From a virus (lineage: Duplodnaviria; Caudoviricetes), in the IMG/VR virus record IMGVR_UViG_3300046813_000129, positions 1 to 40,576 of that record: a stretch of DNA of 40,576 bases; one strand, written 5' to 3'. A program made the position numbers and the translations under genes. Shown here in pieces: positions 3,506-40,576 of the stretch; positions within the stretch are counted from its first letter, which is position 1, and each line of letters begins with the position of its first letter. The notes under the pieces were generated by a model. The model searched no databases, was not told where the DNA came from, and was given only the letters and a program-made list of their open reading frames with translations.

Positions 3506-3795
3506 GCGCCACCGAGCTCGACACCGAGCACCTCGCCGACGTCCTGGCGGCGGGCGACGGCGCCGCTGTGCCAGCCGACCAGCTGGCCGCGCTCGGCCGT
3601 GCCCATGCCCAGCTGCTCGCCCGGGTGCGCAAGGTCGCGGACCAGTCGCAGATCGCCGTCAACGACCTCGCGGCGGCGCAGGGCGAGGTGGCCATGCTGC
3701 GCGCGGTGATCAGCCACCTGCGCTCGCTGATCACCAGCGGCAAGTTCCGCGACCCGCTGCCCGAGGGCACGCTCGTCCGGGGGGCGGCATGCTGA
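3502..3795 (+). CDS. Hypothetical coiled-coil protein
   Basis: ATGA overlap; helical heptad-like sequence. Confidence 0.7.
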   Translation: MSATELDTEHLADVLAAGDGAAVPADQLAALGRAHAQLLARVRKVADQSQIAVNDLAAAQGEVAMLRAVISHLRSLITSGKFRDPLPEGTLVRGAAC

Positions 3796-4049
3796 CGCTG
3801 TTCCTCATCGTCCTGTTCGCCGGCATCGCGATCGGGGCGGCCGGGACGCTCGCGGTATCGGCCCTCTGGCCGGCCGGGCGATCGGCTGAGCGCCCACGGC
3901 TACCGGCGGCGACCGCGCGGCAAGTGCGCCGCGACATGACCCGCCGCCTGGATATCAGCGCCGCGCTCGCGCGCCCGGCTCCACGCACGTACGACGAGCG
4001 GCACTGGTTGCCGCCGAGCGCCGTAGAATTCGACGAGGAGGCCGAGTAG
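3789..4049 (+). CDS. Hypothetical membrane-anchored protein, 86 aa
   Basis: MLTLFLIVLFAGIAIGAAGTLAV N-terminal TM segment; fills the gap in the operon. Confidence 0.65.
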   Translation: MLTLFLIVLFAGIAIGAAGTLAVSALWPAGRSAERPRLPAATARQVRRDMTRRLDISAALARPAPRTYDERHWLPPSAVEFDEEAE

Positions 4050-4474: not shown

Positions 4475-5418
4475 CCGACCCCTACGCCACCACGCACGAG
4501 GACTGGGATCCGCCCGCTGACGAGCCGACGCCCGAGGACCTCGAGGCCCCGCGCCACAAGCCGATCGACCCGCGCACGCTGCCTGCGCGCTTCCACCACC
4601 TGCGCGCGGCCGGGGTATCGGGCGCGCACTGCCTGCTCGCCTTCCAGCGCGAGTCGAGCGACTCGCTATCGAAGCGACTGGGGTCCGGCGTGCACGCGAT
4701 CGCGTTCGGCAAGCCTTGGGCGCTGTGGGACCAGCCGAGCGAGGCCTCGGTCAAGCGGCGCGACAAGGCCGAGCGCGAGGGCAAGCCGCTGCCGCCGCTG
4801 ACCCCGGCGCCGCGGTCGGGCAAGGACTGGATCGCGTTCGTCGCGAAGAACGCCGGCGCGGTCATCATGACGAAGTCCGAGCTCGCGGCGGCACAGCGGA
4901 TGGCGTCGGCGATCCTGTCGCACAGCCGCGCGGCCGAGCTCCTGTTCGCGGGCGACCCCATCCATGAGCGCTCGATTGTCTGGGCGCAGAACGGGCGGGC
5001 GCGGCAGTCGACGCCCGACGTGCGCGACGACGCCCGGCTCGTCGAGCTCAAGACGACACGGAGCGCGCACCCGGCGTTCTTCCTGCGCGACGCCGTGAAG
5101 ATGGCCTACCACGCGCAGCTCGCCGACCAGCGCGCCGCCGTCCGTCACGAGACCGGGCGCGCGCCGCGCGAGACCTTCATCGTCGCGGTGGAGAACACGC
5201 CGCCGCACGTCGTGCAGGTGTTCGACGTGCGGTTGAGCGCGCTCAAGGAAGGCGCTCGGCTCGCGGCGCATTGGCTAGAGCGCCTCCAGATCTACGAGAT
5301 GACCGACGCCTGGGGCGGCTACTCGGAGGCCGACGAGCCCTGGGAGATCGTCGACCAGCCCGACAGCCCGTTCCCCGATCCGCAGTGGCTCGCGACCGAG
5401 GAGGTGTCGGCCGGCTGA
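4471..5418 (+). CDS. PD-(D/E)XK exonuclease, RecE/exonuclease VIII C-terminal (DUF3799)-like
   Basis: GSGVHAI, TPD...LVELKTT, YHAQLA and FIVAVENTPPH motifs. Confidence 0.85.
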   Translation: MTDPYATTHEDWDPPADEPTPEDLEAPRHKPIDPRTLPARFHHLRAAGVSGAHCLLAFQRESSDSLSKRLGSGVHAIAFGKPWALWDQPSEASVKRRDKAEREGKPLPPLTPAPRSGKDWIAFVAKNAGAVIMTKSELAAAQRMASAILSHSRAAELLFAGDPIHERSIVWAQNGRARQSTPDVRDDARLVELKTTRSAHPAFFLRDAVKMAYHAQLADQRAAVRHETGRAPRETFIVAVENTPPHVVQVFDVRLSALKEGARLAAHWLERLQIYEMTDAWGGYSEADEPWEIVDQPDSPFPDPQWLATEEVSAG

Positions 5419-5425
5419 TTCGATT

Positions 5426-5540
5426 TGCGCGCGATGCTCTCCAGGCAACGCGCACCCGGGTGGCTCCGGGCTCGACGAGAGTCGAGGCACAGGCCAGCGC
5501 CGGCGGCGGCCCCCCATCGCCAACCTCCCCGCCGTCGGTG
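5426..5540 (+). ncRNA. Cluster of four hairpins upstream of the tRNA-like element
   Basis: TGCGCG/CGCGCA (5426-5454), CCCGGG/TCCGGG (5455-5470), CTCGAC-GAGA-GTCGAG (5471-5486, GNRA loop), and a 12-bp stem 5498-5540 with a C-rich loop. Confidence 0.55.
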
Positions 5541-5543
5541 TCT

Positions 5544-5648
5544 GTCGAGACAGTGTGGATTGGTGACACGCCGCGCGCGGTTCGCATTCCCTCCCCAAGC
5601 ACCTCCAGGGCACGCGCGGAAACGCTGGTTCGAACCCAGCTCTCGACA
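5544..5648 (+). ncRNA. tRNA-like RNA with expanded anticodon arm (no assignable anticodon)
   Basis: Acceptor GTCGAGA/TCTCGAC plus discriminator A; D arm GTGT-GGATTGGTG-ACAC; stem CCGCGCG/CGCGCGG; variable loop AAAC; T arm GCTGG-TTCGAAC-CCAGC. 39 nt replace the 7-nt anticodon loop. Confidence 0.8.
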
Positions 5649-5660
5649 CGGAGGCATTCC

Positions 5661-5942
5661 ATGGACGCTTTCAATCCCAATCGCATCCCGCCGTGCGTGC
5701 GCTCGGCGCTCGACAACTACCGGCTGCACGGCCTCTGGCCCGGCGACACGACGCACCGGCTGCTGACCGGCGACGTGTTCGGCGCGTTCGCGCGCGCCGA
5801 CGACGAGACCCGCGCGGCGATGCCCGCGATCCTCGAATACATCGCTCGCAACATGCCCACCGAGGCGTTCGGGACGCCGGTCAGGGTCCGCACCTGGATG
5901 GACTCGCAGGCCGCGGCACGCATGCGCTCGAGGTCGGCATAA
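5661..5942 (+). CDS. Conserved phage hypothetical protein, 93 aa
   Basis: SD GGAGG at 5650-5654, ATG at 5661. The Y..HG..PG.....L..D...A..RAD...P...FG...V..W pattern is recalled from phage proteins. Confidence 0.78.
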   Translation: MDAFNPNRIPPCVRSALDNYRLHGLWPGDTTHRLLTGDVFGAFARADDETRAAMPAILEYIARNMPTEAFGTPVRVRTWMDSQAAARMRSRSA

Positions 5943-6193
5943 TGGATCGGGATGACACGTCGCTGATCGACCGGCTTCGCCGTCGCGTCGCCGAGCTCGA
6001 GGCGCTGGTCGAGGTCCTGCGCTGCGGCGACCTGGCCGCGTTCATGGACAGCGAGCTTGACCCCGAGCGTATGGGGGCGTTCGCCTCGCACCTCGCGCGC
6101 TGCGAGGGATGCCAACGCGACCGCCGCGGTCACCTGCAGGTGGATGCACGGCTCCGCGCGGCGGCGGCCCCTCGAAAGCCGGGGTTGCCGTGA
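5942..6193 (+). CDS. Stand-alone zinc-binding anti-sigma (ZAS / zf-HC2) domain protein, 83 aa
   Basis: C..LAAFMDSELDPERMGAFASHLARCEGC matches the Hx3Cx2C ZAS motif; TAATG overlap with the previous gene. Confidence 0.78.
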   Translation: MDRDDTSLIDRLRRRVAELEALVEVLRCGDLAAFMDSELDPERMGAFASHLARCEGCQRDRRGHLQVDARLRAAAAPRKPGLP

Positions 6194-6776: not shown

Positions 6777-7379
6777 ATGTTGAAGGTGATTGCGATTGCT
6801 GTGGTGATGTTGTCCGCGTGTGCTGTTGAGCCCGCCGGCGCGCCAACGCCCGCGCCAGCCAAGGCGCCGCACTGGCAGACCGACTGCGATCCCGACCCGG
6901 CAACTGGCCAGTGCCCCGCGCCCAACGGTGGCGGTGGCGACACATGGGACGTCGCGTGCGGCGGCGTCGCCGGCGAGAGCTGCAACAGCGACTGGACCTG
7001 CCAGATCACCTGTCACGGTGCCGGGCAGTGCGTCGGCCAGTTCACCGACCCCAACGGCTCGCATCCCGGCTGGTGCGTCTCGACGCTGGGTGTCGCGCCC
7101 ACGGTCGATACCGTCGAGCACCAGTGCGTGCTGTGCGGCGAGGACCCGGGTGGCGGGGACGGTGGCGGTGGTATCGTGTCCACCACCGAGAACTGGCTCG
7201 ACGCCAACTACCCCGGGTGGTCGTGGCTGGGGAGCGGGTGGTCGTGGCTGGGGAGCGGTTCCGTCGACTGCCGGGTCACAGCCGACGGCAACGACTGTAG
7301 CGCGCTGTTCCAGTGGGGCGGCTCATGGATCGACGCCGGGTGCGTGCTGCTCGGTGACGGCACCCACGTCTGCGGGTAG
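6777..7379 (+). CDS. Cys/Gly/Trp-rich lipoprotein
   Basis: MLKVIAIAVVMLSA-C lipobox, AGGGAG SD, many Cys, and a 21-bp tandem duplication (WSWLGSG x2) at about 7217-7258. Confidence 0.8.
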   Translation: MLKVIAIAVVMLSACAVEPAGAPTPAPAKAPHWQTDCDPDPATGQCPAPNGGGGDTWDVACGGVAGESCNSDWTCQITCHGAGQCVGQFTDPNGSHPGWCVSTLGVAPTVDTVEHQCVLCGEDPGGGDGGGGIVSTTENWLDANYPGWSWLGSGWSWLGSGSVDCRVTADGNDCSALFQWGGSWIDAGCVLLGDGTHVCG

Positions 7380-7574: not shown

Positions 7575-7870
7575 TCCGGCTCCACCCCGACGACATCCGC
7601 GCGCTCGCCGCCGAGCTGGCTGACCAGCTTGCGGCGCGCCTCCAATCCGGACCACCGTCGAAGGAGGGAATCGCCGCGCCTGGTCGAGAGGACAACGACC
7701 GATGCGACGAGGAGAACGCGTTCATGGACCCTACAAGCACGGAGCACGATGGCGGGTCATCCTGGTTGGAGCGGATGGCTCGAGACGACGTCGCACGTTT
7801 GCGACGCGGTCAGCCGCTGAAACCTACGTCGAGGCCGCGCGCGGCGAAGCGCAGAGCGGGCGCACGGTGA
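7571..7870 (+). CDS. Hypothetical protein in the excisionase position, overlapping the integrase 5' end
   Basis: GTGA-coupled start giving VIRLHPDDIRALAAELADQLAARL; overlaps int by 169 nt. Confidence 0.45.
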   Translation: MIRLHPDDIRALAAELADQLAARLQSGPPSKEGIAAPGREDNDRCDEENAFMDPTSTEHDGGSSWLERMARDDVARLRRGQPLKPTSRPRAAKRRAGAR

Positions 7871-8823
7871 GCGCGGCGGTCGAGGCGTTCCTCGCGGACA
7901 AGCAGGCGCGCGGCCTCGAGCAGCTCACGCTCGACAGCTACCGCGACCGCCTCGAGCTGCTGCTCGGGCCTTTCGCCGAGCGCTCGCTCCGCTGGGTCAG
8001 CGGCCGCGGGGACGAGGTCTATGCGGCCGCGCAGCGCTACCCGGCCGGGCACCGACTTGCCGGGCAGGCGCGAGCCGCAGACACGCACCGCAACGCCCTC
8101 GCGCTGGGCAGGATGTGGGGCCGGTGGTGCGTCAAGCGCCACCTGCTCCGCTCCGACCCGTTCGAGGACGTCGAGCCGGTCGGCCGCAAGGCTATCGGTG
8201 CCGACAAGCCGCGGCTGTCCTTCGACGAGAGCCGACAGCTGCAGGCCTACTGCCACGCGCACGCCAATGACCCGGGCGCGGTGCTGACCCTCGCGTACCT
8301 GCTACTCGGCCCGCGAGCGAGCGAGCTCGTGCGGCGCGTGTGCCGCGACGTCGACGACGCCGGTCGCCTGCTCTGGATCGGCAAGACCAAGACCCGCGCG
8401 GGTCGGCGCCGCCTGGTCGTCCCGGGCGAGCTCGTGCCGCTGCTGCTCGCGCTGACCGTCGGCCGGCCGAGCGAGGCCCCGCTGTTCGCCCACCCCGAGG
8501 TCCGGCGCAGCCGCGGGCGAAGCGAGGGCGGCTCCGCGTGGTCGCGCCGGGTCGCCTACGACCACGTTCGGCGCGTGCTTGGCGCGGCCGGCGTCCCGGT
8601 GCTGCCGCCGCAGGCGCTGCGCCGGACCCAGGCCACGCTCGCGACCGACGCCGGCGAGACCGGGCTCGCCGTGGCTCGCCAGCTGGGCCATGCCGCGGCG
8701 GGGACGCCGGCGGTCACCACCGGTGCGTACATCGGCCGGGACTCCGCGCGCGCGGCCGCCAACCGCCGCGCTTGGGAACGACTTGGGAACCCGTCCCCTC
8801 CCGAGCCGAGCGATGTCAGCTAA
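7702..8823 (+). CDS. int: Tyrosine integrase
   Basis: N-terminal arm-binding-like region (WRV...G.RRRRTFATRSAA), LLGPRASEL (R), KTKT (K), QALRR, QLGH and TTGAY (Y); adjacent to attP. Confidence 0.93.
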   Translation: MRRGERVHGPYKHGARWRVILVGADGSRRRRTFATRSAAETYVEAARGEAQSGRTVSAAVEAFLADKQARGLEQLTLDSYRDRLELLLGPFAERSLRWVSGRGDEVYAAAQRYPAGHRLAGQARAADTHRNALALGRMWGRWCVKRHLLRSDPFEDVEPVGRKAIGADKPRLSFDESRQLQAYCHAHANDPGAVLTLAYLLLGPRASELVRRVCRDVDDAGRLLWIGKTKTRAGRRRLVVPGELVPLLLALTVGRPSEAPLFAHPEVRRSRGRSEGGSAWSRRVAYDHVRRVLGAAGVPVLPPQALRRTQATLATDAGETGLAVARQLGHAAAGTPAVTTGAYIGRDSARAAANRRAWERLGNPSPPEPSDVS

Positions 8824-39661: not shown

Positions 39662-40576
39662 TCAGGTCTCGATCGAGAGCTGGTACTCGGGTCCGGTCAT
39701 GCCGTACGTCGAGGCGATCGCGTTTTGGCAGGTCATCGCCTGGGGATCGCCGAGCTGCTTGCGAATTCCGGGCACCTGCAGCGGGCGCAGCTCGGGGTGG
39801 CAGCGGAACGTGTAGAGCTTCCGGGTGCCGTCGGGCTCCGGCGTCGAGTTTGTCACCTCGATCGCGATGAATGGCTCGTCGCCTTCCTGCTCGATCCGCA
39901 GCAAGCGTCGCGGCCACCCGAGCGCGTCCTTGTCCTCATGGATCACTGCGGCGCCGACATCGCGCAGGTAGCGCCCGGTGTCGCCAGCGTTGTACGCGGT
40001 CACCAGCACGCGCCTGACCTCGGCGTTCGGCTCGTCGCGGATCTGCGCCGCGGTGATCGCGCCCGAGGCCATTGCGGCGCCGCGCTCTGGCGTGAGGCGA
40101 ATGCCGTGAACGGCGTAGACCCCGTAGCCGTCGGCCCACGCTAGCGCGGGACCGTCGACGCGATGCAGGCGATGGCGATCATCGAAGGCGGCGACCTCCG
40201 GGTGCTGCACAAGGATCGTGCAGCCGGCCCACGAGAACACCATGAAGGCCGCGCGCGCCAGGCGTTCCCAGATCTGCAGTCGCTTCTCCTGCTCGTCGGT
40301 GACGCGCACGCCGATCGAGATCGCGAATCGCGAGTGGGCAGTCCAGTACGCCTCGCACTGCCCCCACGACCAGTACGCATTCCATGCTTCCCCGAGCTGG
40401 CCCCCGAGCTGGTCCCGGAGCTGGCCCCGGAGCTGGTCCCGGAGCTGGTCCCCGAGCTGGCCCCCGAGCTGGCCCCAGAGCTGGCCCCGGAGCTGGTCCC
40501 AGAGCTGGTCCCAGAGCTGGTCCCCGAGCTGGCCCCCGAGCTGGCCCCCGAGCTGGTCCCAGAGCTGGCCCCGGAG
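39662..40576 (-). CDS. C-terminal part of DUF6745-like repeat protein
   Basis: Open frame from 40576: repeats, then [52 protein letters not shown] and NAIASTYG. Confidence 0.85.
40390..40576 (-). repeat. 12-bp tandem repeat; 40450-40576 duplicates 1-127 (circular overlap)
   Basis: Base-by-base identity over 127 nt. Confidence 0.95.

Follow-up and report, generated by a model that had tools for sequence, protein, structure and literature searches.

A tRNA-shaped RNA element without a usable anticodon, kept by selection between phage genes, as a candidate signal for mRNA processing

We analyzed a 105-nt tRNA-like element in the genome of an uncultured tailed phage (Duplodnaviria; Caudoviricetes), IMG/VR virus record IMGVR_UViG_3300046813_000129. 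The whole record, a linear sequence of 40,576 bp with 70.7% G+C and a completeness rating of 100%, is referred to here as the window. The element stands in a 242-nt spacer that shows no coding periodicity, between a gene for a RecE-like nuclease and a small open reading frame (ORF) whose Shine-Dalgarno (SD) sequence follows the element directly, and all genes that flank it lie on the + strand (Table 1). Inspection, folding, tRNA-gene prediction and comparison with homologous loci confirm that the element is a genuine tRNA-shaped RNA that has no usable anticodon and has been kept by selection.

Table 1. Features of the tRNA-like element and its surroundings in the window (GC3, G+C content at third codon positions)
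Feature	Position	Strand	Details
tRNA-like element, 105 nt	5544..5648	+	cloverleaf by reading, folding and ARAGORN with introns; covariation
Acceptor stem GTCGAGA / TCTCGAC	5544-5550 / 5641-5647	+	7 of 7 pairs
D arm	5553-5569	+	4-bp stem GTGT/ACAC; GG in loop GGATTGGTG
Expanded anticodon arm	5571-5619	+	closing stem CCGCG/CGCGG, extendable to 7 bp
UUCGCAU motif in expanded arm	5581..5587	+	
Two CCUCC (anti-SD-like) words	5590-5594 and 5602-5606	+	unpaired in centroid fold
Variable region AAAC	5620-5623	+	
T arm GCTGG-TTCGAAC-CCAGC	5624-5640	+	perfect stem, canonical loop
Discriminator A	5648	+	CCA not encoded
SD sequence GGAGG and ATG of next gene	5650-5654 and 5661	+	SD begins 2 nt past discriminator
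Three short hairpins	5429-5453, 5455-5470, 5472-5485	+	from fold of 5419-5690; first with GUUCUCC-type loop
GC-rich hairpin	5497..5541	+	13-bp stem, 19-nt loop CCCCCCAUCGCCAACCUCC; ends 2 nt before element
RecE / exonuclease VIII-like PD-(D/E)XK nuclease, 315 aa	4471..5418	+	Pfam DUF3799 E 8.9e-10; PHROG 412 exonuclease VIII E 2.5e-28; GC3 0.94
93-aa ORF downstream of element, no assigned function	5661..5942	+	GC3 0.91
zf-HC2 (anti-sigma-like) small protein	5939..6193	+	Pfam zf-HC2 E 5.9e-6; homologue in L003
Lipoprotein-like ORF	6777-7379	+	
Tyrosine integrase	7702..8823	+	2 kb 3' of element; PHROG 1 integrase E 9e-26

The element has the 7-bp acceptor stem, the 5-bp T stem, the TTCRANN T loop and the D stem with GG in its loop that are expected of a tRNA, and it lacks U8, A14 and a 7-nt anticodon loop with U33 and a purine at position 37. 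In place of that loop stand 39 nt; in its 7-bp version the arm stem encloses about 35 nt that are mostly unpaired and C-rich. All of these inner nucleotides are unpaired in the centroid fold, and the minimum-energy fold uses another weak 4-bp helix within the inner arm. An earlier, sequence-only reading of this DNA had drawn the same cloverleaf, which folds as described, covaries across the six homologues introduced below and exceeds shuffled controls. It had also noted the missing CCA and the GGAGG placed 2 nt past the discriminator, both borne out by inspection, and a CCCT/AGGG helix closing an ACCTCC loop, which is possible but does not appear in the predicted fold.

Standard tools pass over the element, as that reading had expected. 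ARAGORN with default settings reports no tRNA gene there; with introns allowed it recovers the same cloverleaf at 5544-5649 by removing an arbitrary 32-nt 'intron' at 33/34, which leaves a G at position 33. Run as -i0,60, ARAGORN makes 2 matches in the window compared with a mean of 0.067 in 30 dinucleotide shuffles (two shuffles with one match each). Rfam gives no match at gathering score and, at E <= 10 on 5300-5900, only two chance-level matches, both on the other strand. A search of the window genome for a second copy returned only a 20-nt match (E 0.045).

Several known RNA classes were considered and rejected. The element is no canonical tRNA (RF00005), given the lack of a match at gathering score and of a 7-nt loop with U33, and no transfer-messenger RNA (tmRNA), for which ARAGORN -m finds nothing and Rfam gives no match. 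The ends of the bacterial Y RNA YrlA lie in its Ro-binding stem and not in an acceptor-like stem; those of the element lie in its acceptor stem, and no Rfam match links the two. Membership of the P1 C4 / P4 CI family was set aside for want of any Rfam match at E <= 10 and of a complementary conserved target. An intron-containing tRNA was likewise rejected. Group I introns are hundreds of nucleotides long and the canonical tRNA intron site is 37/38; the ARAGORN intron sits at 33/34 with G33, no contiguous 18-nt removal in the homologue L003 yields U33, and in the window, where the sequence-only reading had seen neither U33 nor a canonical 37/38 intron register, no contiguous removal from the 39 nt restores a canonical loop with U33.

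Nuclease-anchored and neighbour-anchored scans yielded a family consisting of the window and five distinct IMG/VR records: L003 (genome G001), L089 (G002), L010 (G003; with an identical copy, L013), L011 (G004) and L012 (G005). The RecE-like nuclease gene lies directly 5' of the slot in five of the six genomes. In L012 the slot is occupied by a canonical tRNA-Arg(UCU), recognized by ARAGORN and scoring 62.8 bits with Rfam RF00005 (gathering score 29). This tRNA shares with the window element its flanks (CGTCGGTGTCTG upstream and ACGGAGG downstream), the T stem GCTGG/CCAGC and the position after the nuclease gene; the window element differs from it in having 39 nt for the 7-nt loop, in lacking U33, U8 and A14 and in falling below the Rfam tRNA threshold. 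In the five non-tRNA members (window, L003, L089, L010 and L011) a long arm replaces the anticodon stem-loop, and Rfam matched nothing in the latter four at E <= 0.1. The D arm is kept in the window, L089 and L003 and is absent from L010 and L011, which keep the acceptor stem and T arm. The 'anticodons' that ARAGORN forces onto homologues differ (Cys, Gly and Val). A codon-supply explanation was rejected: AGA is equally rare in all six genomes (0.3-0.9 per 1000 codons), so L012 is not set apart.

Covariation supports the conclusion that this shape is under selection. Across the six-sequence alignment, the 12 acceptor and T-stem pairs show standard pairing in 97.2% of 72 cells (70/72), compared with 31-42% when the 3' partners are slid by 1-3 columns. 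Double changes occur at 8 of the 12 pairs, comprising 6/7 in the acceptor stem and 2/5 in the T stem. None of 500 shuffles reached the covariation score; since related sequences can beat shuffles without any structure, the slid-partner control is the stronger evidence. The nuclease genes of these phages share only about 59-70% DNA identity, and the conserved stretches of the element therefore exceed the background. On the opposite strand, the G-U pairs found in the upstream hairpin and in the acceptor stems of L003 and L010 would become mismatches, which identifies the RNA as the product of the + strand. The parts that appear to be selected are the acceptor stem, the T arm with its canonical loop and a segment containing GG that could contact this loop.

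The comparison of the window with L089 is the most informative for the order of events. Their D arms are almost letter-for-letter the same and their expanded arms are common along their length, including the UUCGCAU motif, yet the two differ at pairs 1-72, 2-71, 5-68 and 7-66 and at one T-stem pair, and every one of these differences is compensated. Because the two members already share the derived arm, the shape was selected after decoding had been lost. For the same reason the insert is neither recent nor random: the idea that the homologues might be ordinary tRNAs, and the window a tRNA with a fresh random insertion, fits one of the five relatives (L012), and the window and L089 fixed compensatory stem changes after acquiring the insert they share. 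Neither a decaying pseudogene nor a chance fold is therefore likely. A pseudo-tRNA without present function, left in a slot whose former occupant was a tRNA like the tRNA-Arg(UCU) of L012, would account for that canonical tRNA with the same flanks and T stem and for the loss of U8 and A14 in the non-tRNA members, and the rarity of AGA in all six genomes makes decoding dispensable. Neutral decay would, however, have broken the stems, and the pairing across the alignment, the eight doubly changed pairs, the five compensated changes between two members with the derived arm and a T loop that is canonical in all six make such decay very improbable.

The family remained at this size in every wider search. 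The exact 3'-half pattern of the element was found in 0 genome contigs and 0 metagenome contigs, and a 5'-block pattern returned no records beyond those known. The nuclease-anchored scan gave 0 relatives in genome contigs and two short metagenome contigs, neither of which reaches the element: L006 breaks off shortly before it, and L007 within the nuclease gene. Among 119 loci from a hairpin-pattern search one was real, the L003 contig again. A covariance model (R1) run over 97 sources recovered only the six known records, the duplicate L013 and true tRNAs; a further match, L022/L023, looked like coding sequence and was rejected. The window itself recurs as identical pieces (0 differing letters) in contigs from four metagenome DNA runs of soil, root and rhizosphere. 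Taken together, the pieces span all of the element in X2 and X3, most of it in X4 and the 3' end in X5; none extends across the full 5300-5800 region, and no indel or variant rows are listed, so the runs say nothing on variation. The phage has no cultured relative: its terminase matches none of 50,697 phage records, and its nuclease shares <=30% identity with its matches, which come chiefly from Gordonia phages. About 150 nuclease homologues are present in Logan and JGI contigs and would be the natural place to look for further family members.

Around the element, the 93-aa ORF matches no Pfam or PHROG family, and its position is taken by other small genes in the relatives. Beside the slot in L003 (3920-4076) and L012 (4845-5030), small ORFs encode a basic K/R-rich start followed by LxLKxExxRxL and a Cys-rich end; in this they resemble precursor peptides of ribosomally made natural products. 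The 5200-6000 region contains no match to a sigma-70-type promoter or an intrinsic terminator, which, with all flanking genes on the + strand, fits co-transcription of nuclease, element and downstream genes. Further downstream, 0.9-2.4 kb from the element and on the same strand, a homologous tyrosine integrase is encoded in four of the six genomes (G000-G003), including G002, which has no nuclease gene. Integrases commonly target tRNA genes, and the element could in principle act as DNA, as the phage attachment site (attP) or another recombination site for this integrase that resembles a host tRNA gene. A 29-nt pattern of the 3' half, made up of variable loop, T arm and acceptor strand, had no exact match among 185,579 prokaryote species (one genome each) or in metagenome contigs, a search that may not include the host and would overlook a shorter identity. 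Moreover, G-U pairs, and changes in the 5' strand that compensate those in the 3' strand, are meaningful only in an RNA, genes lie between the element and the integrase gene, and genomes closed by direct terminal repeats (G001 and G005) have an uninterrupted slot. We consider a DNA-level site to have only a slight chance of being correct.

The spacer upstream of the element is also structured. The three short hairpins show pairing that is partly conserved across differing sequences: RNAalifold on the window, L003, L089 and L006 retains helix 1, with double changes in some pairs. The loop word GUUCUCC of this first hairpin (window 5429-5453 and its equivalents in L003, L006 and L089) is kept in 4/4 sequences, and its stem varies. 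The GC-rich hairpin next to the element has nine conserved pairs, including two G-U pairs, in 3/3 sequences that reach it (RNAalifold), and an equivalent hairpin of different sequence lies 2-5 nt 5' of the element in L010, L011 and L012, so that a GC hairpin stands 2-5 nt upstream in all six members. In the window its loop holds one of three CCTCC words of the spacer (5524-5528), and the ACCTCC that the sequence-only reading had seen there is present at 5523-5528.

That reading had interpreted these words functionally, as part of a natural tRNA scaffold whose loops silence GGAGGTG-type ribosome-binding sites. CACCUCC matches the usual 3' end of 16S rRNA, and the unpaired CCUCC/CACCUCC loops of a tRNA-scaffolded antisense RNA might sequester GGAGG-type sites in cis, at the 5661 gene, or in trans, an idea for which P1 C4 and P4 CI offer a precedent. 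In the window the words are striking: CCTCC occurs 37 times on the + strand of the 40,576 nt and three times in the 242-nt spacer, an enrichment of about 14 times, two of the six ACCTCC on this strand also lie there, and all three spacer CCTCC are predicted to be single-stranded. The relatives do not share them. No CCTCC is present in the homologous spacers of L003, L089, L010 or L011, and the only one in the L012 spacer is paired with an upstream GGAGG; at the position homologous to the ACCUCC of the window, L089 reads CCCUAC. The acceptor and T stems covary across the relatives; ACCTCC is not fixed. In 5/5 non-tRNA members, shuffled arms form duplexes with the start region downstream of the element that are as good as those of the real arm (z +0.58, +1.14, +0.88, -0.02 and -0.28). 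The adjacent SD sequence allows only five contiguous pairs with CCUCC, with mismatches on both sides, and the phage has no extended GGAGGTG or GGGGAGGG target, nor any GGAGGTG or GGGGAGG site, at a credible gene start. With non-conserved CCTCC, duplexes at the level of shuffles and no extended target, antisense silencing is not the conserved function of the family, and we judge it improbable as an account of the element; anti-SD activity would be a feature of this one phage at most. The scaffold idea was half right: the RNA is tRNA-shaped, selected and non-decoding, but its display of an anti-SD sequence is not conserved.

The word of the expanded arm that is conserved is a different one. UUCGCAU is identical in four of the five non-tRNA arms (window, L003, L089 and L010; L011 has UUCAUUCC) although the surrounding stems have diverged, and a C/U-rich stretch follows 1-7 nt after it in every arm. 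A tRNA-Ala(CGC) would presumably show the letters UUCGCAU in its anticodon loop, but a faithful mimic of tRNA-Ala is unlikely, since the motif never stands in a 7-nt loop closed by a stem and no acceptor stem has G3-U70. A small minus-strand ORF starting at an ATG complementary to the CAU of the motif was rejected: the reading frames are 11, 13, 32, 62 and >100 aa long with poor GC3, and the G-U pairs become mismatches. RNAduplex detected no conserved complementary target within about 700-900 nt of the element in 5/5 members, a search with the complement of an 18-mer gave nothing beyond the element itself, and ATGCGAA occurs twice in the window, once as the motif itself, compared with 3.5 expected by chance. 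In L010 (4582-4603) and L011 (4492-4513) the element opens with 22 nt (GTCAGCGATGGAAGGNACGACG) that replace the D arm and are identical at 21/22 positions.

These patterns bear on a reading in which the functional product is the excised tRNA-like RNA itself, with the tRNA frame serving only maturation and stability and the arm acting in trans, by binding a protein of host or phage or as a decoy. Conservation of UUCGCAU and the C/U-rich tract amid diverged stems would be expected from it, as would the near-identical 22-nt block of L010 and L011, whose nuclease genes are only about 60% identical. The missing nearby target, the below-chance count of ATGCGAA, the motif's failure to sit in a closed 7-nt loop and the lack of G3-U70 speak against it, and with only five sequences shared ancestry could explain part of the conservation. 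We regard it as unlikely overall, and judge equally doubtful a bolder version in which a tRNA gene has turned into a self-maturing small RNA that host RNase P, RNase Z and CCA-adding enzyme excise and whose swappable arm is a 'payload' acting in trans. Such a payload would consist of UUCGCAU and the C/U-rich tract, here elaborated into two exposed CCUCC/CACCUCC words that copy the 16S anti-SD sequence, it would differ between phages, and its proposed targets would be the translation starts of host or phage, or else a factor of the host that binds tRNA. The conserved motif nevertheless keeps a second role for a released RNA in view, as one that the arm sequences suggest it may have.

Our preferred reading is that the element is a tRNA-derived punctuation element that is cut by RNase P and RNase Z within a polycistronic phage transcript, to which we assign a probability of roughly 45%. 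RNase P is predicted to cleave at 5543/5544 and RNase Z or 3' trimming to act after A5648, releasing a tRNA-like RNA of about 105 nt. The nuclease mRNA would then carry the GC hairpin at its 3' end, where it would be protective, and the downstream message would have its 5' end at the SD sequence or 1 nt before it. In this way the recombination genes would be uncoupled in their fate from the accessory and integrase genes. The minihelix and elbow of a tRNA are what RNase P, RNase Z and the CCA-adding enzyme recognize, and the anticodon arm is dispensable to them. The target of selection would accordingly be the acceptor/T-arm minihelix as these enzymes recognize it, and the retention of acceptor stem and T arm in L010 and L011, which have no D stem, fits such a requirement. 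The junctions look like those of a processing substrate, with U at -1 and G at +1 in 5/6 members, a discriminator A in 5/6 and a T loop of the form TTCRANN (UUCRANN) in 6/6. In 5/6 the discriminator is followed directly by N-C-GGAGG, so that the SD sequence starts 2 nt past it. The hairpin just upstream, the SD sequence just downstream and the lack of promoter and terminator matches all fit the punctuation model. On balance the element is likely to be a cutting signal for host tRNA-processing enzymes rather than a silencer of ribosome-binding sites.

Several observations weigh against punctuation. The folding energy of the element is unremarkable (z -0.55; 53/200 shuffles fold as well), as is that of the whole spacer (z -0.06), and the minimum-energy fold of L089 is not a cloverleaf. 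L089 also encodes ACCA and places its GGAGG 26 nt past the discriminator, showing that the SD junction is not universal, and its genome, G002, is the one without the nuclease gene. The family is small, with six distinct records of uncultured phages, and no RNA run is among those listed as holding the sequence. Cleavage directly before an SD sequence could destabilize the downstream mRNA instead of helping it, and a pure cutting signal does not explain the conserved arm motif.

If the punctuation reading is right, a phage keeps a decoding-dead tRNA only to recruit maturation enzymes, and these define where neighbouring mRNAs begin or end along the boundary of recombination genes with accessory and integrase genes. 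The family offers an unusually clean natural series, from a true tRNA through a cloverleaf with an expanded arm to a minihelix without a D arm, that shows which parts of a tRNA the non-decoding role needs. These elements are also candidates for a new RNA family, absent from Rfam and skipped by standard tRNA finders and annotation pipelines, and UUCGCAU together with the window-specific anti-SD words provides leads for a trans-acting product.

Other tRNA-like sequences came to light in the same material. On the minus strand of the window, a second candidate at 1084-1191 has a 7/7 acceptor stem (GGGCCCG/CGGGCCC), a T arm GCGTG-TTCGATT-CACGC and a discriminator A, with a long GC arm and a small hairpin between; a PHROG 27831 gene has its start codon, the ATG at 1036, some 45 nt downstream of it. 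Labelled 'Lys ctt' by ARAGORN -i, which assumes a 30-nt intron, the candidate folds with z -2.5; no homologue was found in the loci retrieved, and G003, the sole relative with the same gene, has coding sequence there. The record L004 (IMGVR_UViG_3300049589_000060) carries at about 1500-1577 on the minus strand a tRNA-Met(CAT)-like sequence with an initiator-like C1-A72 mismatch, whose T arm and 3' acceptor strand resemble the window element (about 22/25 by reading) and whose flanks differ, which means that it does not occupy the same slot. In L094 (IMGVR_UViG_3300025536_000012, 136,875 bp), ARAGORN reports on the minus strand two adjacent tRNAs of undetermined type with the four-base anticodon aatg (3770-3845 and 3850-3923); they adjoin tRNA-Lys and tRNA-Cys and may be quadruplet-decoding or odd-loop tRNAs of a large phage. 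ARAGORN output at low threshold also pointed to 12-nt tandem repeats (CCCGGAGCTGGT-like) at about 40402-40576 of the window, reaching the end of the record within a minus-strand ORF that runs off it.

Phages offer two sets of RNAs for comparison. The C4 RNA of P1/P7 and the CI RNA of P4 are reportedly excised from a longer transcript by mimicking the tRNA acceptor/T region, as Hartmann et al. are said to have described in 1995, and they act through loops complementary to conserved target sites. The element is likewise phage-encoded, stands upstream of genes that it possibly affects and has a tRNA acceptor/T-like region; unlike C4 and CI it has a full canonical T arm and, in three of the five non-tRNA members, a D arm, and no conserved target was found. 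The stable RNA species 1 and 2 of phage T4 have tRNA-like ends, are matured with the tRNAs and do not decode, and they lie inside the tRNA gene cluster. They differ from the element in this location, which is not between protein genes, and are not known to have any sequence relation to it.

Beyond phages, RNase P is described as processing polycistronic mRNAs, the phage C4 RNA precursor and mascRNA (PMC4919922). mascRNA/menRNA share with the element a tRNA-like structure at a processing site, which in the phage is a predicted one; cuts by RNase P and RNase Z yield a small tRNA-like RNA there and define where the long RNA ends (PMC4919922). They differ in being eukaryotic and nuclear, in having no sequence relation to the element and in lacking an adjacent SD sequence. 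The Bacillus cereus pseudo-tRNA tRNA-Other is, by its abstract, a tRNA-like gene with a non-translational, regulatory effect, and is distinguished by its chromosomal location, near-canonical form without an expanded arm and an unrelated mechanism (PMC3399842).

The closest documented parallel is the t-element of plant mitochondria (Forner et al. 2007, PMC1920247). t-elements are non-canonical cloverleaves in mitochondrial mRNAs with a conserved GGTTCRANYCC arm, their ends coincide with mRNA ends, they are proposed or shown to direct cuts by RNase P and RNase Z from which the 5' and 3' ends of mRNAs arise, and the excised form can be stable and gain non-encoded C/A (PMC1920247). The phage element shares the mRNA context, the non-decoding cloverleaf and a T arm, GGTTCGAACCC at 5627-5637, that matches GGTTCRANYCC. 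t-elements are organellar and are scattered copies of mitochondrial tRNA sequences (PMC1920247), whereas the element belongs to a double-stranded DNA phage, occupies one syntenic slot and carries an expanded arm with a conserved motif. If the punctuation reading holds, the element would be a bacterial-virus counterpart of organellar tRNA punctuation and of the t-element principle.

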